From an uncultured Chthonomonadaceae bacterium (GTDB lineage: Bacteria; Armatimonadota; Chthonomonadetes; Chthonomonadales; Chthonomonadaceae): a stretch of DNA of 14,978 nucleotides. Numbering within the stretch: position 1 is the first letter of the stretch; each line of letters starts with the position of its first letter. The translations under genes and the position numbers were made by a program. Below, piece by piece: positions 3,455-14,978 of this stretch. Under the pieces are notes generated by a model that was not told where the DNA came from, made no database searches, and worked only from the letters and a program-made list of their open reading frames with translations. The stretch is from contig CAWIEK010000017.1 in NCBI GenBank assembly GCA_963835065.1, positions 1 through 14,978 of the forward strand, read 5' to 3'.

Positions 3455-4405
3455 TTACTGCTTCGGCGGCGTTTGCGAGTTGGCGGCTTGCGCTTTCTGT
3501 CGCCGCTCCCAGGCGCGTTGGTTGTCGCGCTCCGTTTTCTCCCGCAGGTCCATGCGGGCAACGGTGGCATTGATTTCCGCCTGCGCCTCACGCGGAGAAG
3601 TCTGCGCCAGGCGGCTGAAGACAGCGCGGGCTTCCGTATAGCGTTTCATTTCCATCAGCAGCCGGCCCTGAATAAACTGCGCTTCCTGCGAACGCGGATT
3701 GATCTTGAGCGCCTGCTGCACGTGATCAAGCTGATACGGCAGCAGGGTGTCTTCCAGTTTTTCCAGCGTGAGGAAGCTCGTGGAGCGCGTTCCCAAAATC
3801 AGGTGCGCCTGTGCGCGCAAGCCGGGCAAATCCTCGGCTTCGGGGCTGAAGTGCGCAATGGCAAGCGTATGTTCCTGATCGCCCGCGCCGATGCCGTAAC
3901 CTTTCATGTGCCACTTCAGCAAGCCTTCATTCTGCGTATGCAGGCTGACGCTTTGCTCATACAGCGCGGCGGCTTCCGGCCATTGCTTCGTGTCCAAAAG
4001 CGCCAGCACGTACTTCATGCGCGTGGTAATATCCTGACCAGAACTGTAGCCCCTGTCCGGCGGCGGACAGACCATAGGCCGGAGTGTTTCCAGCACGTCT
4101 TTAGGACGGTTCCATCGAATGTAGATGTCGGCCAGGTATATTCTCGCGCCGGAGTCGTCGTCTGCTTGCAGTGCCTGCAGCAGCAGGGGAACCGCTGCCG
4201 TAAGATTGTCTTTGGAGAGCATCGCTTCCGCTTGTCTTCGGAACGCATCTGCCTGCTGCATGCGCACTTTAGCAGCGGCAACGCGCGCGGCATGTTCGGG
4301 CGTCTCCTTGATTGGCGGACCATAGCCCTGAATGTTCTGTGCATGTGCCATGCTTGCCGCAGCAATACAAACTACGGCTGTAGACATCCTAAAAAGACGT
4401 TTCAT
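3455..4405 (-). CDS. Exported tetratricopeptide-repeat-like protein, 316 aa
   Basis: AGGAGA RBS; Sec signal MKRLFRMSTAVVCIAAASMAHA|Q; TPR-like helices (AAVPLLLQALQADDDSGARIYLADIY; QQALKINPRSQEAQFIQGRLLMEMKRYTEARAVF). Confidence 0.8.
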   Translation of the reverse strand: MKRLFRMSTAVVCIAAASMAHAQNIQGYGPPIKETPEHAARVAAAKVRMQQADAFRRQAEAMLSKDNLTAAVPLLLQALQADDDSGARIYLADIYIRWNRPKDVLETLRPMVCPPPDRGYSSGQDITTRMKYVLALLDTKQWPEAAALYEQSVSLHTQNEGLLKWHMKGYGIGAGDQEHTLAIAHFSPEAEDLPGLRAQAHLILGTRSTSFLTLEKLEDTLLPYQLDHVQQALKINPRSQEAQFIQGRLLMEMKRYTEARAVFSRLAQTSPREAQAEINATVARMDLREKTERDNQRAWERRQKAQAANSQTPPKQ

Positions 4406-4560: not shown

Positions 4561-6189
4561 TTAAAAGGTAATTACCTGTGTCCAGGTGGGAAGTTCCGAT
4601 GTTTTGCTGTCGGAGGTTACGTTGACCTTTCCGCTGGCTATCCACGTTTGGTTGAAGGCGAAGAACTTGGCTAAACCGTTAAGGTTCCATGCTGTCTTCC
4701 GTAACGGAACCCAGGTGGTCCCGGAAGCTCCATCTGCATCGGGGGGCCGATATATAGTATATGTTTCATATTTGTGGGTCATGCCGACTTCAGTCATGTT
4801 CTGTGTGACCGGATAGTGTAGGCTATCACTAATCTGATTTATTGTGCCATCTGCGGGAAACATGTCGCCACCATACGTAAAGTTGCGGTCTAAGCCTGTC
4901 TGGCCGTTGTTCGGAACAAAGGTTTTGACACCGTTTATGAAGTAGTATCCACCAACGGTGATAACCTGAGCCATTCGCCCACTGTCCACTGCCCTCCTCG
5001 CCTACGAACTGGATTGGGGTAACGACGGTTCCTTTCCATGTAATTCCATTGTCGTAACGGTCCCCATCGGCAATGAGGAGAGAGTTGTTGATAATGAGTT
5101 CTATGATACCAGACGTAACAATAATTCGAGTGTCTGGTTCATAGACCTGGATAACCTTCAAGGGGTTGACTTGATGCTGTCCGCCCTGCGGATCGGTGAC
5201 TGTGGCGGAACAGAAAATGACAGAATCTGTTGAGCCTTCCGCGCCGCTGAGTGAGCGATAGTACCAGGAGAGAGTGGATTGCTGTTTCATGGCAGCCGTG
5301 AGTTCGAGGGCTTGACCTGTTGTGGCCGTCACCTGGAACCCGGCAAACGGGTCTGCGCCGGCAATGCTCCACTGCCAGCTTAATTGTGGATACCGTCCCG
5401 TATCCAGACTGGCATTAAGATGCTGACCAATCAGAACACCGGGATCGGAGCCGACCGGGGTTGTGCCGCTTATTGCAATTACGACAGGCGTGGCGTCGGC
5501 GCGATAATAAACCGTAGCGCCGCCGGTTCCTCCTGTAGCCGGCGTATAGGAACCTGATCCAGAACCGGAATAGCCGCCACTGTTTCCTCCTGAGGAGGAG
5601 CCAGATGAGCCACTGGACCCCGTCCAGGAAACATCGGCTGAAGGGCTGCACGTCACATCGAACGTATCACCGGGATGGTCTTTGACCCAGTAGTGGAAGC
5701 CATAACAGGAGCCATTCTGATAAATGGTGCGGCCATCCGGGGAAGCGCTGCTGCTGTTTGTGGCGGCGGAGCCGAGGCCATTGTCGCAGTCACCGCTGAT
5801 TGTTACGCCGGCATCTGCCGAGCAGTTGTAACCGGCGCCCGATTCTTCCGCGATGATGGCCTGCGGGGGCGCCGGTTCACCCGCATAGTCCGGCATCCAT
5901 GTGAAAGTGGCGGTAATCGGGCCGCTGCAGCTAATGTCTCCCCACTGCTGCCAGGGCAGATAATTGTAGCCTCCGTAGTACCCGGCATAATTGGTGAAGT
6001 AGGGACCGGAGGAGTTCTGCCCATTCGAGGACAGTGTGAGAATGTTGCCGCCGGAATACGTCACAGCATAGTGCCCGGCGCGAGCGGATTGGACGGCAAG
6101 AAGCGTCAGGACGCCACACAGCAGGGCGCAAACACGCGACAAGCGCGGGGGGGCGAAACAGATGAGAATCGAGAACGCAGCCTTTTCAT
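4561..6189 (-). CDS. Large exported hypothetical protein (~540 aa), beta-rich with a Gly/Ser linker; frameshift near 4975 and probably at the G7 tract 6147-6153
   Basis: ORF 4829..6220 has a signal peptide (VCALLCGVLTLLAVQSARA|GHY), a Tyr/Cys-rich N-domain, a GSSGSSGSSSGGNSGG linker and an Ig/PKD-like stretch. At GSGQWA it continues in the frame of ORF 4561..4989 (MAQVITVGG...WVPLRKTAW...LPTWTQVITF*). Best start is ATG at 6189 (MKRLRSRF), which needs one more G in the G7 run; the alternative is the ORF-track start at 6220. Confidence 0.7.
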
Positions 6190-6369
6190 TCGGGAATAAC
6201 CTACTTTGCTCACAATACAAACCGATTCAACAGCAAACAAGTGGTTTGTCGGCAGTTTGGGCGGCAAGGCCGAAACAGGAAGGAACAGGGTTATTACACG
6301 AACAAGGCTCATCAGGAAGCATTGCTGTATTTATGATAGACAAATTTCGTTTCTTTGTCAATTGGTAGA

Positions 6370-6471: not shown

Positions 6472-8506
6472 TCATTGAGCAGGCGGCAGGGTCAGGCGGA
6501 AAAGAACGAGGTCGGAGGCGGAAGCGAGCGGCTGTCCATACATGCGGGCGAGGCGCTGCGGGAAGATGTTAGCGTTGTCGGCGGGCAGGTAGGGCGGGCC
6601 ATATTCGGCAAGGGGCGCGGCGGTTGGGCTGGCGATGATGTAGCCGCTGTGGTCGCGCTGCGCGTCGGCCAGAAAATGCTCCCATGTATCCAGTCGAAAC
6701 CGGGTTTGATAAAACGCCTTGACGGTGTAACAGTAGGGATTGCAGTAGTACGTGTCGCCGAATCCGGCAACCAGGATACGGTCTTCGGGGCGCAGATGCG
6801 CATTGGCGTAGTTCCAAAGCGGCATGGGCGGCAGTTGATGGAGCAGGTACTGTTCGCGGGTTTCCCGTCCAAGCGCGACTCGCGCGGCTTCTCCCAACAC
6901 GCGGCACAGACGAACGGACGTACCACAGGCCGTTCAAAACCGTCCACGCGCCGAACGCGGCTTGCAGCCATGCGCGGCGGCTCCACAACGATTGGGTCAG
7001 GCCGAAAAACAGCAGGGCGTGAAGGCACAAAACAGGAACCAGAAAGCGCAGGTATAGTCCCGTCGTGGCAAAGGATACCAGCGTTGGACATGCGGCCATC
7101 AGCAGCAAGCGCCGCGCGTTTTCCGTCGCTACGCGCTTCCACAGCCATAGCCCCGCACACGCATAACTCGCAATCACGCCCGCCAGCAAACCAAACCGGA
7201 ACGCGGAACCCCAATGCGTATGCCCGCTGCCCCAGTTGTACAGGCGCATGTAGGTGTCAAAGGCGTGTCCGTGCGCAGCGCTCCAATCGCGGGTCGGGAA
7301 CAAACCGGGAAGCAGGGGATAAACCGGATTGCCCGTCAATTTCCAGGAACGGAGCAGCCAGGGCAGGGCGGGCATGATGCCGACGCAGAGGAACCTCATT
7401 CCAGGCGTCCATTTAGGAACACCCTCCCTGAACGCTCGTTCCTCGCCAGGAGACGGGCTATTCATTTCCCCACTATTGAGCACTCCTGCTTCACTTAGAG
7501 AGAGGCTTTTTTGTTGGTTGCCCGCTTTGACCGCTCTTCTTAAATGTTCTTCGCGCCATGTCAGGAGGGCGAAGGTCAGGACGAATAATGCGCCCGTCAG
7601 TTTGAATGCAAAGCCGAAACCGGCGCATAAAGCCGAAATTATCAGCCACCCGCTGCGACCGGAACGCTGCCAGGCAAACCACGCAATCGCCGCGCATATC
7701 ACTTCCAGGGCGATGCCTAAATCAATATAGGCATACGTGAACAGCGCCAGAACCGGCGCTTTGGGCAGGCCGAGCGCGAAAAAAGCCGCAGCCGCCAGCC
7801 CGACGCGACTGCTGTACAAGCGCCTGCCGAGCGCGTAAATGGCAAGCAGGGCCAGCAGCCCCAACGCGAAGTGAATCAATTTTGCGGCAGTGTCGCTCCA
7901 GGCGGCAAGGCCGAGCGCGTAAAGCATTTCCACGCCCATCGGGGAATTGGTATGCGTGAGCGTCGGCAGAAACTCCAGGCTGCCGGATTGCAGCCACAGT
8001 TTGGGCGCGCGCAAATGGTATGCCAGGCCATCGGCATCCGTGCAGGGGCACAGGGATTGGAAGAAAGTAAGGAGGAGGAGGAAGATATAAGATATAAGAT
8101 ATAAGATATAAGCAGGGGAGAGAGAGGAGAACGGAGAACCGGCGCGTTGCTTGAAGCCATGCCATTGGCTGCTTACCGACTTGCTGAGGGAACGGAGGAC
8201 GCGCACTATGTCCCGGCTGAATAGCAGGGTCAGGAGGGCCAGAGCGATTTCAACATTGGTGGGCGTGAGGAGGGAAAGCAGGCCGAGCAGCAGCGCGACA
8301 TTGGAAAGCAGGCCCAGGCCGACACCCGCGCATAGACTGCCCCGTTCAAGTCGCGTTAAGTCTTCTTCGGGCAGACGCAGGACGCGCAGCAGGCGCGAAC
8401 CCATTGCCGTCGCCAGCAGGCACAGCCACAGCACAAACGGCGTATCGTACTCCAGTGGAAACGCAGAAGTAGGCACGACAAACATAGCTAGGAAGGCATT
8501 AGGCAT
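6472..8506 (-). CDS. GT-C fold polytopic membrane glycosyltransferase (ArnT/PMT, family 39-like); frameshift near 6900
   Basis: Many TM segments; first-loop motif DADGLAYHLRAPKLW; YAYIDLG, GFAFKLTG, TGNPVYP, RFLVP. The C-terminal soluble domain (LGEAARVALGRETREQYL...YANAHLRPEDRILV) is in ORF 6472..6900, joined by removing one base. The true start may be ATG at 8485. Confidence 0.82.
8082..8112. repeat. Heptamer tandem repeat (AAGATAT)x4 inside the GT-C coding region
   Basis: Four exact AAGATAT units plus AAG; translates as YILYLISYIF. Confidence 0.95.
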
Positions 8507-8516
8507 TAGGCATTAG
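8494..8516. repeat. Heptamer tandem repeat (AGGCATT)x3
   Basis: Three exact units overlapping the ORF-track start of the GT-C gene. Confidence 0.9.
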
Positions 8517-8543
8517 AGACAAGAGTTAAGATACAAGCGCATG

Positions 8544-8588
8544 ACCTGAACACCCGAACACCGAACACCTGAACACCGAATACCGAAC
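8544..8588. repeat. Mixed 7/8-mer tandem repeat, same family as 2615-2651
   Basis: ACCTGAAC ACCCGAAC ACCGAAC ACCTGAAC ACCGAAT ACCGAAC, 2 nt after the TAA at 8591. Confidence 0.92.
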
Positions 8589-8590
8589 TG

Positions 8591-9763
8591 TTACCCCCGC
8601 ACCGGCGTTTTGTCCATCAGGGCGCTCATGGGCACAATGGCGACGGTGCTTTCTTCGCGGGGAATGAAGAAGGTTTTGGCGTGTTTGTCGCAGGACGCGC
8701 AGATCGCGTTGGGCGCGCGCTTTTCCAGGGACAGGCGGCGGTTTTCCTGATACTGCGCGTTGTTCCAGATTTCGGTGAACGGCTGTTCCAGCAGGTTGCC
8801 GTAAGAGAAGGATTCCTTGAAGGGAGTGCAGCAGCCGAGCGTGATTTCGCCCTCGAACGACACGCGGAACTCTTCGCCCCAGAAGAACTGGCAGCCGAAG
8901 GAACCGTTTGGGTCGGACCAGGACACGTCTTCCGAAGGGAACGATTTGGAGCGAACGCCGAGTTCAGCCATGCGCTTGCGGGCCGCGCTCAGTTCGCGCT
9001 CGTAATTGGCGTGGGTGCGCCGGTTCTGAAAACCCCAATCATAAGTGGCATAGGTGACGCAGTTGAGGAAGTCTACACCGAAGTCCGCCGCCTGCTCCAC
9101 GAATTGTACCAGTTCGCCTTCATTTTCATTGAGCAGGACGAAGTTCATGCCGATCATGGGCAACTGTGCCCCGGTTTCGCGCTTGGCCTTCATCAGCAGG
9201 CGAATGTTTTCGTGCAGGATGTCCAGCTTGCCGCCCCTGCGAACCCGGCGGTACGTGTCGGGCAGAGCGGCGTCAATGCTGATGTTGAGTTCCGTCAGCC
9301 CGCAGTTCATCAGCTTGTACGCTTTTTCCTCGTCAATCAGCATCCCGTTGGTGTAAATGCCGATTTTGCAATGGGGATGCTTTTTGCGCGTGTAATCCAC
9401 GATTTCAAAGAATTGCGGGTGCATGAACGGTTCGCCGAAGCCGTTCAGCGACAGATTCATGACATACGGAAACTGCGCCAGCACTTTTTTGTAGTTGTCG
9501 AACGTGATGTCGCCCAATTTGTACGGCTTCAGTCCAAGCGAACGCAGGCATTGAATACAGGCCAGATTGCAGCGGTTCGTCAATTCGATTTCGATGAACG
9601 GCGGCAGGCTGTTCATCACCAGCGGGCGCTCGGCCTGTTCCTTTTGCCAGAGCCGATAATTGGCAAGCGTACGCGGACGCAGCGCGAGGCCAAAAGCATC
9701 GTTCTCTTTCAATTTCCGGTAGGTTTTCACAGCCCTTTGCAATGGGTTTGACATTGTATTCAA
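8591..9763 (-). CDS. Radical SAM protein with C-terminal SPASM/twitch domain
   Basis: IELTNRCNLACIQC (CxxxCxxC), LNGFGEPFMHP, YTNGML, ISIDAA; C-terminal CQFFW...GCC...YGNLLEQPFTEIWNN...CASC. Start is TTG at 9763 or ATG at 9754. Confidence 0.93.
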   Translation of the reverse strand: MNTMSNPLQRAVKTYRKLKENDAFGLALRPRTLANYRLWQKEQAERPLVMNSLPPFIEIELTNRCNLACIQCLRSLGLKPYKLGDITFDNYKKVLAQFPYVMNLSLNGFGEPFMHPQFFEIVDYTRKKHPHCKIGIYTNGMLIDEEKAYKLMNCGLTELNISIDAALPDTYRRVRRGGKLDILHENIRLLMKAKRETGAQLPMIGMNFVLLNENEGELVQFVEQAADFGVDFLNCVTYATYDWGFQNRRTHANYERELSAARKRMAELGVRSKSFPSEDVSWSDPNGSFGCQFFWGEEFRVSFEGEITLGCCTPFKESFSYGNLLEQPFTEIWNNAQYQENRRLSLEKRAPNAICASCDKHAKTFFIPREESTVAIVPMSALMDKTPVRG

Positions 9764-9780
9764 CCTTATCCTTAAAGGGA

Positions 9781-9897
9781 TCAGGATTCAGGATTCAGGG
9801 GTCAGGAAATTTCCTGCTCACTAATCTTTCTGCCAATATCAGCGTCAGAACCGAGTGAGATACACTCCCTACCTGACCCCTGAATCCTGAACCCTGA
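9781..9897. repeat. 26-bp inverted repeat built of heptamers, enclosing a 65-nt spacer
   Basis: 9781-9806 TCAGGATTCAGGATTCAGGGGTCAGG versus 9872-9897 CCTGACCCCTGAATCCTGAACCCTGA: 25 of 26 complementary. The right heptamer tract continues to about 9908. Confidence 0.92.
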
Positions 9898-9910
9898 CCT
9901 CTGACCCCTC

Positions 9911-11632
9911 TCACTTCGCCCGCAGCGTAAGCGGTATCTTCTCAATCGCGCGGTTGGCGATGGCTTCGGGAACCTGCACTTCGGGAGTTCCGCGCTTGCG
10001 ACGCCAGGCTACAGCGGCGCGAACCGCCACGAGAGCCAGTCGGCGCGGCAGCAGATGCAGATGCGTTTTCAGCACCGCTTTTGCGCCGTATTTACGCGCC
10101 CGGTACATGCGGTACGGGATAATCAGTTCCAATCGCGCCCACAGCCGCGCTAAAGACAGGTCGCTTGCGCTCAGGAAGCGGGAGCGAACCGTCGCCTCGT
10201 AGCTGTTCCACTGCTCGTACTTCATGCCCCGTTCCAGCAGCCCCTCGGCCAGGGCGCGGTAGTACAGGGGCGTACCGGGAAACGGCGTCATTACCGTAAA
10301 GCCGGACTCGCACGGAACTTCTTTGGAATACGCGATGGTGCGGGCAACCGTGTCCCAGGACTCTTCGGGAGCGCCGATGACGAACGTGCCGTAGACATGG
10401 AGGCCCAGGCTGTCGGCAAACGCGATTTTGCGGGCGAGAATGTCGTTGATTTTGATTTTTTGCCCGATGCTTTTCAGGCACTCTTCATCCGCGGTTTCAA
10501 TACCGGTTGTAATGGTCTTTACGCCCGCTTTCACCATGAGTTCAATCAGCGGGTCGTCCATGCACTCCAGGCTGCCTTCAACCGTCGCTTCCATTTTCAC
10601 GCCGCGCGCAATGCACTCATTCAAAATGGCGCGCGACTGCTTGCGGTCGAAGCCGAAGTTGGGATCGCGGAACCGCCAGCGCGTGATGCCCCACGTCTTG
10701 TTGAGCCATTCCATCTCGTCTACGGGGCGCATAATGGAACTGTTGCGTATAGGTCGGCCTTCGTGCAGCATATACGGGCACATGGTACAGCCAATGGGAC
10801 AGCCCCGGCTTGTGGTCACGTACACGTTTAAATCTTCGGTTTTGCCCGTCGGGCTGTAGCGTTCCAGGGGAAGCAGATGGTATGCGGGGAACGGCAAATC
10901 TTCCAAACTCTCGACCTGCACCCACTGCGCGAACTTGCCCTGCTGCGAGCCGTCGTACAGTTCTTCCCCCTTGACCGGGATGTAGGAATTGGGAACGATC
11001 ACGCCGGGCTGCCGCTTCCATGCGCTGCCTTCCGCCCGCAGCATCGGCCCGATAACCGCTTCCGGCTCGCCGTATAGAAGGGCGTCGGCATTGGTTTCCC
11101 CGATCCAGTGATCCAGCGTGGTCATAATCACGGAGCCGAACAGGAAAACGCGAGTGTCGGGGAGGGCGGTCTTGATTTGGTTGGCGAACTGCAAATCCTG
11201 CGACAGGGAGGGCATGGACAGCCGTATGCCGATCCATGTTTGCTCACCCTTTTCCGCCTGCTCGCCAATGCGTTTTACCGTATGCGTAACCGCCGCATCC
11301 CCGGCAAGTCCTTCCAGCATCAGGTCGAGGATAGCGACATTCGCGCCACACTCCTCCGCCACGCCCGCCGCCAGCAGAATGTCGGGCGCGGGCAAGGGAA
11401 GCGTCACTTTTTCCAGCGGTTTGAGCTTGCGCGACACGCCCAGCCCGCCCGAAAGCGTCCGGTCATTGGTATAGCCGCGCCGCTCCGGTGGGTTGATCAG
11501 AAACAAACGGCGCGAAGATTTTGGATTTTGGATTTTGGATTTTAGATTATCCATTCCCGCCTGTGGGTTGCCGATTGTTGATTTTTGGTTTTCGCTTGTG
11601 GATGGAAGCACGATTGTCCTCTTATCCCTCAC
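9911..11632 (-). CDS. Cobalamin (B12)-binding radical SAM protein (class B methyltransferase/HpnJ-like architecture)
   Basis: N-terminal B12-binding-type region (LFLINPP...PDILLAAGV...ILD...YGEPE), LEDLPFPAYHLLP, TTSRGCPIGCTMC, FRDPNF, GIETAD, FVIGAPEES, TPFPGTPLY. Alternative start is ATG at 11554. Confidence 0.9.
   Translation of the reverse strand: MRDKRTIVLPSTSENQKSTIGNPQAGMDNLKSKIQNPKSSRRLFLINPPERRGYTNDRTLSGGLGVSRKLKPLEKVTLPLPAPDILLAAGVAEECGANVAILDLMLEGLAGDAAVTHTVKRIGEQAEKGEQTWIGIRLSMPSLSQDLQFANQIKTALPDTRVFLFGSVIMTTLDHWIGETNADALLYGEPEAVIGPMLRAEGSAWKRQPGVIVPNSYIPVKGEELYDGSQQGKFAQWVQVESLEDLPFPAYHLLPLERYSPTGKTEDLNVYVTTSRGCPIGCTMCPYMLHEGRPIRNSSIMRPVDEMEWLNKTWGITRWRFRDPNFGFDRKQSRAILNECIARGVKMEATVEGSLECMDDPLIELMVKAGVKTITTGIETADEECLKSIGQKIKINDILARKIAFADSLGLHVYGTFVIGAPEESWDTVARTIAYSKEVPCESGFTVMTPFPGTPLYYRALAEGLLERGMKYEQWNSYEATVRSRFLSASDLSLARLWARLELIIPYRMYRARKYGAKAVLKTHLHLLPRRLALVAVRAAVAWRRKRGTPEVQVPEAIANRAIEKIPLTLRAK
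11517..11593. repeat. Heptamer repeats (GATTTTG)x3-4 plus a degenerate second tract, in frame in the B12 radical SAM N-terminus
   Basis: GATTTTG x3, GATTTTA at 11517-11544 encodes LKSKIQNPKS; GGTTGCC GATTGTT GATTTTT GGTTTTC at 11566-11593 encodes ENQKSTIGN. Confidence 0.88.
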
Positions 11633-11644
11633 TGCTAAATCTTG

Positions 11645-11672
11645 TGCCTACTGCCTACTGCCTATTGCCTAC
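11645..11672. repeat. Heptamer tandem repeat (TGCCTAY)x4 overlapping the GT4 stop codon
   Basis: TGCCTAC TGCCTAC TGCCTAT TGCCTAC; the TAG at 11662-11664 lies within the repeat. Confidence 0.93.
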
Positions 11673-12894
11673 CCAACGCCTGTCGGTAAATATCGGCCAT
11701 GCGCTGCGCCTGCTGTTGGGGCGTAAATTGGGCTAAAACGCGCTCCCGTCCACGCCTACCTATTTCTTCGCGCCGACTGCTATCTTGCAGTAAGGCAATC
11801 AGGGCGTCAGCCAGCGCGTCGGTGTTGCGGGCTGGGGTGAGCAGACCCTCTGTGCCGTTTTCGATGATTTCGGGCAATGCGCCGGAAGCAAAGCCGACAA
11901 CGGGCGTTTGCATGGCAAGCGCTTCCGTGACGACGAGGCCGAACGGCTCTTCCCAACTCGGTACGGCAAGGATGTCCAGATCGGCCATGATGCCCGGCAT
12001 ATCGTCATGCCAGCCCGACCAGTGAACACAATCTTCTAAATTTAATTCCGAAATTCGCTGCCTTAAACCGCGCTCGAATTCCTGACCGCCATACGGAGGC
12101 ATGTCTACGGTTCTGCCGATGATCGCAAGGTGGGCGTTGGGCACGGCGGTTTTCACGAGCCGCATAGCCTCAATGAGTTCCTGATGGCCTTTCCACAGCA
12201 TGATGCGGGCAACAATGCCAATCAAAGGCGTGTCGGGTTTCAGGTTCAGGCGGCTGCGCAGTTCGCCCCGCATAACGCGCAGGGGATCAAAGCGCGTTGT
12301 ATCTGTCGCATTATGGCAAACCGCGACTTTGGCATCGGGCAGGCCGCCGTCCAGCATGGAACAGCGCGTGAACTGCGAAATGGCGATGATACGGGTACAA
12401 TGCTTGACGGCAAGCATGGCCGCGCGGCCAATTCCATCATTCCACTTGTTATGCACGTGGACGATGCTTTTGCAGACGCCCATGCGGACGAGCGAGGTGG
12501 CAAACAGGGCGTCGCGGGGCCGGTCGGTGACATGCACAAAATCAATGCGATGCTTCCGTATATATACTGCAAGCCGCGCAAGCGAGACAGCCGCCCCTAC
12601 ATTGCGCAGCGCGTTTGTGGATTTGGCCGCGAGGTTTCCGCCCGAACCGGCAGTTTCGCGCCCTAAATCCAGCGCGAGTGGCTTCAAGCCGGCAACCGAC
12701 TTCAAAATTTCAAGCGTTTGCGCGAAGTCTATGGCATTGCGGTTGGTGGCGACATGAACATCAATGCCCTGTGCGCCCAAGTGCTGTATCAACGAGAGGT
12801 GTACGGCGACATCTGCGCCCGCCACGCTGCGGGTATTCACAAATAAAACGCGCGGCTGTGAGTTCGACTGCGCTGCCTGCGGCGGACGGGGCAC
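11662..12894 (-). CDS. GT-B fold glycosyltransferase, family 4
   Basis: IIAISQFT, IGIVARIMLWKGHQELIEA, and the EX7E signature PSWEEPFGLVVTEALAMQTPVV, GALPEII; GGAGG RBS before GTG. Confidence 0.95.
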   Translation of the reverse strand: MPRPPQAAQSNSQPRVLFVNTRSVAGADVAVHLSLIQHLGAQGIDVHVATNRNAIDFAQTLEILKSVAGLKPLALDLGRETAGSGGNLAAKSTNALRNVGAAVSLARLAVYIRKHRIDFVHVTDRPRDALFATSLVRMGVCKSIVHVHNKWNDGIGRAAMLAVKHCTRIIAISQFTRCSMLDGGLPDAKVAVCHNATDTTRFDPLRVMRGELRSRLNLKPDTPLIGIVARIMLWKGHQELIEAMRLVKTAVPNAHLAIIGRTVDMPPYGGQEFERGLRQRISELNLEDCVHWSGWHDDMPGIMADLDILAVPSWEEPFGLVVTEALAMQTPVVGFASGALPEIIENGTEGLLTPARNTDALADALIALLQDSSRREEIGRRGRERVLAQFTPQQQAQRMADIYRQALGRQ

Positions 12895-12996
12895 GAATCA
12901 TCCTCCCGGAAGGGATAAATACATATTAACATAAATCCACGCTTTGAGCAAGGGGATTTTCCACAGTTTTGCCGAGACAATCCCTATTGTCTATAT

Positions 12997-13013
12997 TGCA
13001 AAATTCATGCCAG
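12997..13013 (-). promoter_or_regulatory. Sigma54 (RpoN) -24/-12 promoter for the GT4/radical SAM operon
   Basis: Minus strand CTGGCATGAATTTTGCA versus consensus YTGGCACGNNNNTTGCW, exact GG-N10-GC spacing, about 100 nt upstream of the GT4 start. Confidence 0.7.
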
Positions 13014-13094
13014 TATAGAGCAAAAGGCCTAGAACAGCATAAAATTATAAAAATATTTTGAAAGTTTTGCCATTTCATTCTCAAAGGAACAACT

Positions 13095-14592
13095 ATGGCG
13101 CAGGAAACGCCACAAATAGACGCTCCAATCTCGCATGAGCGGGTCGCAAAGAATACGCTGATTTATATTGTGGGGCAGTTGGTGAGCTGGGCCATGACGC
13201 TGCTTTCCGTGTCCATCATTCCGCGCCGGCTTGGGGAAACGGGCATGGGGCAACTGGCGATTGCCGGCACGACAGTCGGAGCGGTCGCCAACATGATGAT
13301 GCTCGGCCTTGGACGGGTTCATCAGCGCGGAAATCGGGCGCAACCGGCCTGCCAGTGAGCGCATCGTGCAGGCGTTTATGGGATTGCGCCTGTGCCTGCT
13401 GCCCCTGCTCGCCCTCGTATCGCTGTCGGCGTTGGCGATTGCGCATGTATCGCCCACGATCTGGCAAATCGGCCTGATTACATTGGCGTCCGTAAGCGTA
13501 GCGTTTGTGTTCGCGCCGCTCCGGGCCGTGCTGATGGGGTGGGAAGAAGCGCGTCCGATTTCGATTTACACGTTCATCATGGGGTTGGCTCCCCTGCTTG
13601 CGATCCCGTTTCTGGCGGGCGGGCCGGTCACGTTCTCGATTATTACGTTTTTTGGCGGGCTGCCGGCAACCCTTGCGGTGGTGCTGGCGATCCGGGGTCG
13701 GGTGAAACTGCGCCCGCGCCTGGATACGGCAACGTGGCGCTTTCTGATCTGGGGCAGTTCCACGTTTCTGGTGACGGAGTTCGTAGCGCAGTTTTACGAT
13801 TTAGGCTCCGTTTTCATTCTGCGCCATTTCACGGACGAAGCGGCAGTGGGCGTGTACTCGCAGGCCACCAAGCTGCTCGGCACGTTTTTGTTTCTGCCAA
13901 CTGCGGTAGGCTACGCCCTGCTCCCCTCCCTGACCCGACTGGCGGACGCAAACCCGGCGACGTTTGCCCGCTTGCAGCAGCGCGTGTTCGGATTAATGGC
14001 GGTGCTGGCGATGCCGATAGCCGTTCTCGCCCTGATGCTGGCGCATCCGTTTTGCCACCTGCTGTACGGGGGCGAAAAGTTCCGCTCGCTGCCGGTCACG
14101 GTGCAGTTTTGTTCGCTGAACTTGATCCCGCTGTACATCACGATGCTGCTGTACCGGTTTTTGATCGCGCAGAAACGCAACGCCATCTGGAGCGGGTTCA
14201 TGCTGGGAACCGTGCTGCTCAACGCGGGGTTGTGCTGGCTGCTGATCCCCCGGACGCTGCACAGCGCGTGGCCGCATACGGGCACGGTGGGCGCGATTGT
14301 GGCGGCGGCGATTGCGGAAACGGTGACGGCGATCTGCGCCCTGATCCTGCTGAAAGTGAACCCGCTGACGCGCGAAAACGGGCTGCGGATCGTGGGCGGG
14401 CTGGTGGCAAGCGGGGGCATGGCGGGCGCAATGTGGCTGACGCGGGACTGGTTTTTCGTGCTGCGGGGCGCGGTGGGCATGGCCGCGTTCGGCATCGTGG
14501 CGTGGAAATTGCAGGCATTGGGCGATGAGGAACAGCAGCAGCTTGCCTCCCTCCTCCGCAGCAAACTCCCCGCCCGCTTCCGCAAAGCATAG
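13095..14592 (+). CDS. Wzx/MOP-family oligosaccharide flippase (~498 aa; frameshift near 13309)
   Basis: ORF 13095..13358 gives VAKNTLIYIVGQLV...IIPRRLGETGMGQL...MLGL; ORF 13309..14592 gives DGFISAEIGR...AVGVYSQATKL...LLPSLTRL...NAGLCWLLIP...GAIVA. Highly hydrophobic; removing one base joins them. AAGGA RBS. Confidence 0.9.
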
Positions 14593-14623: not shown

Positions 14624-14800
14624 TCAGCCTTCATCACAGGTAAGGGTATGGAGAGAAAAAGGATATGTAGAGTCATCGTCGAAATCTTGGCAATACAGCG
14701 CTTCCAGCCCGATGTCTCGTTGTGTCAAGTTGTAGGAGAGAGGCGTCGTGACCTCATGGGCGTCAAGGCGAACGGGAGGGGTGAAACATAGGACTTGCAC
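14624..14800 (-). CDS. Putative small acidic protein, 58 aa
   Basis: Open frame from GTG at 14800 to TGA at 14624: MQVLCFTPPVRLDAHEVTTPLSYNLTQRDIGLEALYCQDFDDDSTYPFSLHTLTCDEG. A strong AAGGGAGGT RBS lies at its 5' end but is better spaced to an ATG at 14789 that is one base out of frame. Confidence 0.4.
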   Translation of the reverse strand: MQVLCFTPPVRLDAHEVTTPLSYNLTQRDIGLEALYCQDFDDDSTYPFSLHTLTCDEG

Positions 14801-14812
14801 CTCCCTTCTGAG

Positions 14813-14840
14813 TTAGGGTTTTAGGGTTTTAGGTTGTTAG
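14813..14840. repeat. Octamer tandem repeat TTAGGGTT x2 plus degenerate copies
   Basis: TTAGGGTT TTAGGGTT TTAGGTTG TTAG. Confidence 0.8.
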
Positions 14841-14978
14841 TTGAGAGGAACTCGAACTTTCAGCCTTCGTCTCTGCACAGTAGACGTTTGTGCTATTTTT
14901 TAGACGGCTGTATGGGGCAAAGGGTTCACTTTTTCGCGTTATTTTGCTCTTTTTCCTGTGTATTTTATATCTTTGCAG

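Follow-up and report, generated by a model that had tools for sequence, protein, structure and literature searches.

A GT4 glycosyltransferase–radical SAM cassette from an uncultured Chthonomonadaceae bacterium and its possible role in tailoring an exosortase-associated exopolysaccharide

The window analysed here is the entire contig C17 (14,978 bp) of an 8.0-Mb genome (hereafter G000), assembled in 71 contigs, from an uncultured Chthonomonadaceae bacterium. Between positions 6472 and 14592, four genes on the minus strand, coding for a GT4 glycosyltransferase, two radical S-adenosylmethionine (SAM) enzymes (rSAM-1 and rSAM-2) and a membrane glycosyltransferase of GT-C type, are accompanied by one plus-strand gene for a Wzx flippase that diverges from them. 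All five genes, with the positions and orientations given in a first-pass annotation of this DNA, were confirmed by scans for open reading frames (ORFs) and for Pfam and NCBIfam models. Of what that annotation had observed, the genes and their layout stand; the assignment of rSAM-1 as a B12 enzyme is probably wrong, and GT-C and Wzx are each split by a frameshift.

The conserved cassette and its neighbours

The conserved unit is a set of three genes in the order GT4 > rSAM-1 > twitch rSAM-2, all on the minus strand of the window. The GT4 gene (11662..12894) encodes a retaining glycosyltransferase of the GT-B fold (PF00534, E 4e-35; PF13439), of which the best NCBIfam match is EPS_EpsE (128 bits, cut-off 400) and of which residues 76-116 form a conserved basic amphipathic segment with a charge of +3 to +7 in 31/31 aligned rows. 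The rSAM-1 gene (9911..11554), with PF04055 and a CxxxCxxC motif, codes for 547 aa from the ATG at 11554, its open frame extending upstream to a GTG at 11632. The rSAM-2 gene (8591..9763) carries PF04055 together with PF13186. In a close relative (run X4, about 90% identical), a single contig spans 8261-14593, and the gene arrangement therefore holds in near kin.

A total of 53 rSAM-1 loci were counted after leaving out an unrelated archaeal match, one outgroup of 28% identity and two duplicate stretches; these loci are not all independent, several near-duplicates remaining among them. The GT4 orthologue was found in 32, rSAM-2 in 31, both in 19, and a GMC oxidoreductase or an aldo-keto reductase (AKR) in nine. 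At least one partner is present in 45 of the 53, and seven of the remaining eight are contigs shorter than 3.7 kb. The record titles of these loci include Armatimonadota, Acidobacteriota, Polyangiaceae/Myxococcales and Chloroflexota. Moreover, the genes are found as fusions, rSAM-2–rSAM-1 in P0076, P0088 and P0102, the opposite order rSAM-1–rSAM-2 in P0089, and GT4–rSAM-1 in P0123, while a 2714-aa frame in L051 that ends in GT4 is either a fusion or a shadow frame. The co-occurrence of two radical SAM enzymes with GT4, as claimed in the first-pass annotation, is thus seen both as linkage and as fusion to each other or to GT4.

Among 60 related genomes, rSAM-1 is present in 15, rSAM-2 in 23 and the GT4 orthologue in 22, and all 15 with rSAM-1 also have GT4 and rSAM-2. 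Neither of the two same-genus genomes has an orthologue of rSAM-1, rSAM-2 or GT4. Across 401 genomes of the phylum, an rSAM-1 orthologue was detected in 17, all with rSAM-2, which itself was detected in 25.

The composition of the cassette varies, and the GMC oxidoreductase, the AKR and a dioxygenase similar to KanJ are optional partners. Variants include GT4>rSAM-2 (G024) and GT4>PhyH>rSAM-2 (G023), the PhyH protein of the latter giving PDB matches with KanJ only (E 2e-9) and having orthologues next to GT4 in L036 and L266; four other PhyH genes near the cassette (L049, L061, L255 and the second in L169) are not orthologous to it and may be there by chance. Four genomes (G410, G411, G412 and G414) contain the radical SAM pair with no neighbouring GT4, and the GT4 orthologue is located elsewhere, beside GMC, AKR or both. 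GMC orthologues were found in 10 of the 60 relatives, all cassette carriers; the association of GMC against rSAM-1 gave p 0.23. rSAM-2 was not found in three genomes, G415, G416 and G417, where GMC or AKR adjoins rSAM-1. That GMC plus AKR strictly replace rSAM-2 or rSAM-1 was considered and is unsupported, both co-occurring with rSAM-2 in L037, L078, L171 and L180; in the last of these (L180:63-2373, genome G055), a tandem duplicate of rSAM-2 stands directly behind GMC and AKR. In L036, L265 and L267, cassette genes adjoin genes resembling those for polyketide synthases and non-ribosomal peptide synthetases; the record of L036 bears the title Alphaproteobacteria although its identity to the window protein is 68%, and it may be mislabelled or transferred.

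The other two of the five genes are neighbours of this cassette rather than conserved parts of it. The GT-C gene (6472..8506, minus strand) codes for a PMT_2/ArnT-like membrane glycosyltransferase (PF13231, 33 bits, cut-off 26), of which blastp (E<=1e-3) detected no counterpart at any other locus in the screen of 56. Its orthologues are intact and unlinked to the cassette, often adjoining AglJ/ArnC-like or UbiA-like polyprenyl-phosphate-sugar synthases; on the single chromosome of G013, the cassette is located at 2.78 Mb, the best GT-C at 3.45 Mb and Wzx at 3.71 Mb. GT-C is therefore probably not a core gene, and the five-gene unit ending in transfer by GT-C, as originally proposed, was not upheld. 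The Wzx gene (13095..14592, plus strand; PF13440/PF01943; NCBIfam Wzx_EPS 32.5 bits, cut-off 800) had a single match in the other loci, a distant flippase of 24% identity. The idea of a fixed operon of five genes was rejected on these grounds. A loose link of GT-C to the cassette is possible: the 10 closest GT-C orthologues are all in cassette-bearing genomes, with a threshold that was chosen after the data had been seen.

Relative to their intact orthologues, both neighbours are broken once in frame, GT-C by a one-base shift near 6896 and Wzx by a +1 frameshift near 13310. Related-strain contigs lack the additional base at 6896 in two out of four runs, and pieces from three runs that cross the Wzx break align with one gap, being shorter by one base. 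In addition, four of 26 housekeeping genes tested in the G000 assembly are also frame-split, including those for ProRS and DnaK (contigs C69 and C49), and pseudogene calls in this assembly are unreliable on that account. Because related contigs lack the extra base and housekeeping genes are split likewise, the two frameshifts are probably assembly errors, and the alternative that GT-C and Wzx are pseudogenes was judged unlikely.

Assignment of the two radical SAM enzymes

In the first-pass annotation, rSAM-1 was taken as a B12-dependent (class B) radical SAM enzyme that would methylate carbon. The Pfam scan of the rSAM-1 protein gave no match to the B12-binding domain (PF02310), which was matched in six of the 120 homologues listed. 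The NCBIfam ranking was headed by AprD4 (NF033070; 117.4 bits, cut-off 500), followed by Sden_1168 (116, cut-off 575) and HpnJ (101.9, cut-off 577.6); since all these scores are below cut-off, rSAM-1 belongs to none of the three families. Among the methylase families HpnR, PhpK, Sden_1168, KedN5, TsrM and others, none scored above cut-off, the best being 116 against 575. Upon sequence search of PDB, AprD4 (6FD2) was first with E 7e-24, the next match having 3e-7, and upon profile search 6FD2 gave E 1.9e-38 and the next 3e-9. An AlphaFold2 model of rSAM-1 (pLDDT 86) led to the same protein, with a Foldseek E of 6e-26 for AprD4 vs 1e-16 for TsrM, and with a VIA alignment to AprD4 of Z 30.7 and rmsd 3.2 over 442 residues (chain 5-457) that includes the N-terminal domain; the next VIA matches were MgmA (Z 23.7) and TsrM (Z 23.4). 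The N-terminal domain of the model is Rossmann-like, and its best match is again the cobalamin-free AprD4.

At the residue level, an N-terminal loop R-T-x-x-G-G-x-G is common to rSAM-1 and AprD4, and the HpnJ of G000 has a similar one; AprD4 residues Y216, E220, R225, D251 and E280 and the FRDP motif fall on invariant or near-invariant columns of rSAM-1. AprD4 is counted among the enzymes that have a Rossmann-like domain and yet bind no cobalamin (PMC12931638), and is described as dehydrating paromamine at C3', after which AprD3 reduces the product (PMC13707489). Taken on sequence and predicted fold, rSAM-1 is probably not a B12 methylase and is closest to the cobalamin-free sugar dehydratase AprD4, a result that goes against the C-methylation originally proposed.

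On the methylase reading, rSAM-1 would depend on cobalamin and methylate C (or P), and GT-C would transfer the methylated and oxidised sugar once it had been flipped. The Rossmann-like domain, the second rank of methylases in the fold comparison, the Sden_1168 score and the PF02310 matches in homologues are all in its favour, as are the co-clustering of the methylases Fom3 and MoeK5 with HpnJ (PMC9204698), the confinement of the close GT-C orthologues to cassette carriers (10/10) and a phosphoenolpyruvate mutase gene that adjoins the rSAM-1 orthologue in one locus (L079:2764-3591), a single case on a short contig. AprD4, however, exceeds every methylase by 7 in VIA Z and by about 10 orders of magnitude in the E-value of Foldseek, the N-terminal loop is common to the non-methylases AprD4 and HpnJ, and GT-C is adjacent to the cassette in no other locus, adjoining polyprenyl-phosphate-sugar synthases instead. 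On balance, we regard this reading as quite unlikely.

The C-terminal 45 aa of rSAM-1 form a strongly basic helix pair with a net charge of +7 to +14 in 30/30 rows; among 1845 long ORFs of G000, 10 attain the rSAM-1 tail charge of +13, and the tail of HpnJ, which acts on a lipid, has +11. We infer peripheral membrane binding and non-methylating chemistry for rSAM-1. The rSAM-1 family makes up a compact clade, in which five full-length representatives at 50% identity score 683-874 bits and the next 378, and which is mislabelled in databases as BchE or B12-binding. About half of 148 representatives (P0121-P0268), as counted by eye with a loose pattern, share the GGxG loop of AprD4/HpnJ type; this subgroup is large and uncharacterised, and includes multi-domain proteins of 1800-2600 aa.

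As to rSAM-2, the best match in the PDB sequence search was BtrN (E 1.9e-18). The radical SAM motif is C65/C69/C72, and C291, C311, C312, C355 and C358 are invariant in 19/19 rows, which gives one four-Cys auxiliary cluster motif (C291, C311/C312, C355, C358) and one spare invariant Cys. With a single C-terminal auxiliary motif and PF13186, rSAM-2 is of the twitch type; its score for the NCBIfam model N_Twi_rSAM is 65 bits, below the cut-off of 170. C235 is conserved in 18/19 rows; in NeoN, Cys249 is the hydrogen donor for epimerisation (PMC10991966). The ranking by fold was DesII (Z 23.6), SkfB and SuiB (22.8), BlsE (21.2) and BtrN (19.3), the identity to BtrN in fold alignments being 18-22%. 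By sequence, rSAM-2 is BtrN-like, and is predicted to be a dehydrogenase or epimerase.

The top rank of DesII, which acts on a TDP-sugar, raises the question of the substrate. In bacterial surface polysaccharides, Wzx/Wzy glycans included, unusual sugars normally arise through polar chemistry at the nucleotide-sugar stage, and a dedicated GT4 accompanies every variant of the cassette; the radical enzymes could accordingly modify a free nucleoside diphosphate (NDP)-sugar donor, from which GT4 then transfers the sugar into the same polysaccharide. Three points speak against this order of events: the tail of rSAM-1 is conserved, strongly basic and of membrane type, the substrates of AprD4 and HpnJ are glycosides and not NDP-sugars, and neither a nucleotidyltransferase nor an NDP-sugar dehydratase is a recurrent neighbour of the cassette in the loci scanned. 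Modification at the NDP-sugar stage therefore seems unlikely to us.

Aminoglycoside pseudo-disaccharide synthases are GT4s, and among proteins of solved structure AprD4 stands nearest to rSAM-1, BtrN to rSAM-2 and KanJ to the PhyH partner, as would be expected if the cassette made a soluble aminoglycoside-like pseudo-disaccharide or another small glycoside. PDB, however, is biased towards antibiotic enzymes, the scanned neighbourhoods contain no recurrent gene for an aminocyclitol synthase, a deacetylase, resistance or export, and both the membrane-type helices and the link with exopolysaccharide (EPS) genes described below point elsewhere, so that a soluble product is highly improbable.

The exopolysaccharide locus and other features of the genome

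An exosortase-associated EPS locus of Wzx/Wzy type is located on contig C24 of G000 at about 83-103 kb (83500-103500; L274, L275), with genes for an exosortase, GT4s, a GT2, an acyltransferase 3, an MBOAT protein, Wzy, a GH44 protein, WecG/EpsA-like and EpsU-like proteins and a polysaccharide co-polymerase (PCP). No Wzx was found in this locus. Orthologues of the window Wzx are intact, occur in 20 of the 60 relatives and, in G008 and G029, lie inside the same EPS locus; the window Wzx is in turn the only strong tblastn match to those flippases in G000. The window Wzx is likely the flippase of the C24 locus. G000 then possesses the gene set of a Wzx/Wzy pathway, Wzx in the window and Wzy-like, PCP-like, WecG, GT2 and GT4 on C24, the Wzx, Wzy, PCP and EpsU-type matches being below and that of WecG above the NCBIfam cut-offs.

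The cassette itself has been found in such surroundings. Outside Armatimonadota, cassette genes are often located among genes for GT4, GT2, Wzy, Wzx, WecG, acyltransferase, GH44 and exosortase, and orthologues of the C24-type EPS genes surround them in L044, L050, L054, L065, L071, L085, L264 and L266. With one GT4 gene of the C24 locus as the EPS marker, 35 of the 60 relatives (Chthonomonadales-type) were positive, 24 of 26 cassette carriers vs 11 of 34 others; the two carriers lacking the marker are G039, which is 64% complete, and G048. The marker is present in 20/20 Wzx carriers, 10/10 carriers of close GT-C and nine of the 10 further cassette carriers that were reached through loci. The raw Fisher test of cassette against marker gave p 3e-6, kin not being independent. 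Among the genomes that have the marker, Wzx shows no additional association with the cassette (p 0.14) and GT-C a weak one (p 0.015, again with the threshold chosen post hoc). The envelope-glycan context and the connection of Wzx with it, both put forward in the first-pass annotation, are supported by these gene contexts. The target of the cassette is likely an exosortase-associated, Myxococcus-EPS-like Wzx/Wzy polysaccharide, and the end product likely a Wzy-polymerised EPS, not a product of GT-C transfer.

A second candidate target is a membrane lipid, either the hopanoid side chain or a glycolipid, which the cassette would decorate in parallel to HpnI/K/J. HpnJ, for which ring contraction of a hopanoid-borne glucosamine has been proposed (PMC13459092, PMC9204698), belongs to the same subgroup as rSAM-1, and basic helices would fit a lipid substrate. 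In 56 of 61 genomes from the order, squalene-hopene cyclase (shc; G000:C5:41425-43347) scores above cut-off, and HpnJ is present in 50 of 61; this near-universal presence predicts, from sequence, cyclitol ether lipids of bacteriohopanetetrol (BHT) in the order. In one genus (L046:18739-20748, L179:5159-7165; G042, G049), shc and a radical SAM gene lie in the same orientation 5-7 kb downstream of the cassette. Against a lipid target, no match to shc was obtained in five of the 10 further carriers, including a single-contig genome, and a sixth gave a match below cut-off only; four of those five have the EPS marker. G000 also has a separate true HpnJ (C41:104015-105391, 748 bits with TIGR03471), and the identification of rSAM-1 as HpnJ was rejected accordingly, given its 101.9 bits vs a cut-off of 577.6; the earlier expectation that rSAM-1 is distinct from the HpnJ of a hopanoid locus proved correct. 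The other neighbours of the cassette are polysaccharide genes. Altogether a lipid target appears very unlikely.

The other part of the window contains genes for a PAS-histidine kinase and a tetratricopeptide-repeat protein on the minus strand (1185-2663 and 3455-4405), with further two-component ORFs towards the contig start. Two overlapping minus-strand ORFs of 463 and 142 aa lie at 4561-6220; the former has a signal-peptide-like start and a Ser/Gly linker and gave no match in the Pfam scan, and the two may represent one secreted protein broken by another frameshift. Short G/T-rich repeats are present between genes at 8507-8590, 9764-9910, 11520-11560 and 14650-14870. Related contigs stack over them to a depth many times that of the background, as would be expected if the lineage has dispersed families of such repeats.

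Proposed pathway and comparison with known systems

The cassette is proposed to be a satellite tailoring module of the exosortase-associated Wzx/Wzy EPS, in which GT4 adds a sugar and the radical SAM enzymes remodel it without methylation; we give this proposal about an even chance of being right. GT4 would transfer a hexose or hexosamine from an NDP-sugar to the repeat linked to undecaprenyl diphosphate at the inner face of the membrane. The predicted cobalamin-free rSAM-1, held at the membrane through the basic helices of its C-terminus, would abstract a ring-carbinol hydrogen and eliminate the neighbouring hydroxyl, leading to a deoxy-keto sugar, or might contract the ring. Oxidation or epimerisation of a ring carbon may then be carried out by rSAM-2, as by BtrN, NeoN and HygY, and in other genomes GMC oxidoreductase and AKR, or the KanJ-like dioxygenase, could supplement or replace the redox step. 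The modified repeat would be flipped by Wzx and polymerised by Wzy of the EPS locus. A more far-reaching version is tentative, and we hold it to be less likely than not: the linked or fused radical SAM pair would rewrite the sugar in place on the undecaprenyl-diphosphate repeat, not on a nucleotide sugar, by deoxygenation plus epimerisation or by an HpnJ-like contraction to a carbocycle, the KanJ-like dioxygenase and GMC/AKR would be swappable, and the AprD4/BtrN/KanJ toolkit of aminoglycoside synthesis would be of surface-glycan origin.

A number of observations weigh against the proposed tailoring of EPS. Every family score is far under its curated cut-off. For rSAM-1, the AprD4 model leads that of the Sden_1168 methyltransferase by 1 bit only (117 vs 116), the identity to AprD4 is 22-26%, the cluster motif is CX3CX2C in 30/30 rows instead of the CX3CX3C of AprD4 (PMC13707489), and R282 of AprD4 is replaced by an invariant Ser. 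For rSAM-2, the fold does not single out a sugar enzyme, DesII being tied with the peptide maturases SkfB and SuiB. Orthologues of the partner AKR and GMC were not found in G000, and the reductant for the keto product is therefore unaccounted for. As to the target, most Chthonomonadales carry the cassette among housekeeping genes, outside the EPS locus, and G048 and G410 have cassette genes without the EPS marker. With kinship controlled on a quick tree of squalene-hopene cyclase from 57 of the 61 genomes (G002, G040, G047 and G048 left out), the co-distribution of cassette and marker is not significant, the 4-6 independent pairs being too few; the direction was the same in 2-5 of these pairs on average and opposite in 0-0.5.

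Of the pathway first suggested for this DNA, the co-occurrence of the radical SAM enzymes with GT4, the envelope glycan and the tie with Wzx are retained, while C-methylation by a B12 enzyme and a five-gene unit with GT-C transfer are not supported. The parts are of known kinds, and their combination and probable target appear undescribed; no description of the module was found in the open-access literature, to which the search extended. If the proposal is true, the action of AprD4-like and BtrN-like radical enzymes on an EPS repeat would represent a new route to glycan diversity, a function would be given to a compact uncharacterised clade now labelled BchE or B12-binding, and new catalysts of sugar deoxygenation would become available. 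The pathway can be tested, its three enzymes being soluble or peripheral and its proposed host polymer named.

The closest known system is the AprD4/AprD3 module for C3'-deoxygenation of paromamine in apramycin and tobramycin synthesis. AprD4 is the best match of rSAM-1 over the whole length in both sequence and fold, shares with it the GGxG loop and several invariant residues, and acts after a glycosyltransferase step, as rSAM-1 would; some rSAM-1 loci include a reductase partner. This partner, however, is an AKR and is often absent, and rSAM-1 is linked to a twitch radical SAM enzyme and an EPS locus instead of an aminoglycoside cluster; no AprD3-type short-chain dehydrogenase/reductase and no aminoglycoside genes recur in the rSAM-1 loci, the GMC or AKR of nine of the 53 being what was found. 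The sugar-acting twitch or SPASM enzymes BtrN, NeoN, HygY, BlsE and DesII resemble rSAM-2 in having a radical SAM domain and one four-Cys auxiliary motif, BtrN being its best sequence match and DesII and BlsE being among its fold matches; rSAM-2 differs from them in the identity of about 20%, in a fold match that is not separable from that of peptide maturases, and in an N-terminal helical extension.

HpnJ, with its proposed contraction of the glucosamine ring of BHT-glucosamine, is similar to rSAM-1 in the B12-like subgroup, the N-terminal loop, the basic tail and the predicted non-methylating chemistry on a lipid-borne sugar, but the rSAM-1 cassette occurs in genomes where shc was not found. 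Finally, the known systems closest to the proposed polymer are exosortase/PEP-CTERM EPS loci and the EPS pathway of Myxococcus xanthus, which is Wzx/Wzy-dependent; the word 'radical' is absent from the paper describing that pathway (PMC7484181). The labels of the M. xanthus pathway are the best NCBIfam labels both in the window (EpsE, Wzx_EPS) and on C24 (EpsA, EpsU, Wzy_EPS) out of the EpsA, EpsE, EpsU, EpsV, Wzx and Wzy described for that pathway (PMC7484181). In G000 the labels of Myxococcus EPS genes are all below cut-off, and the locus differs from that of M. xanthus in having an exosortase and GH44 in addition.

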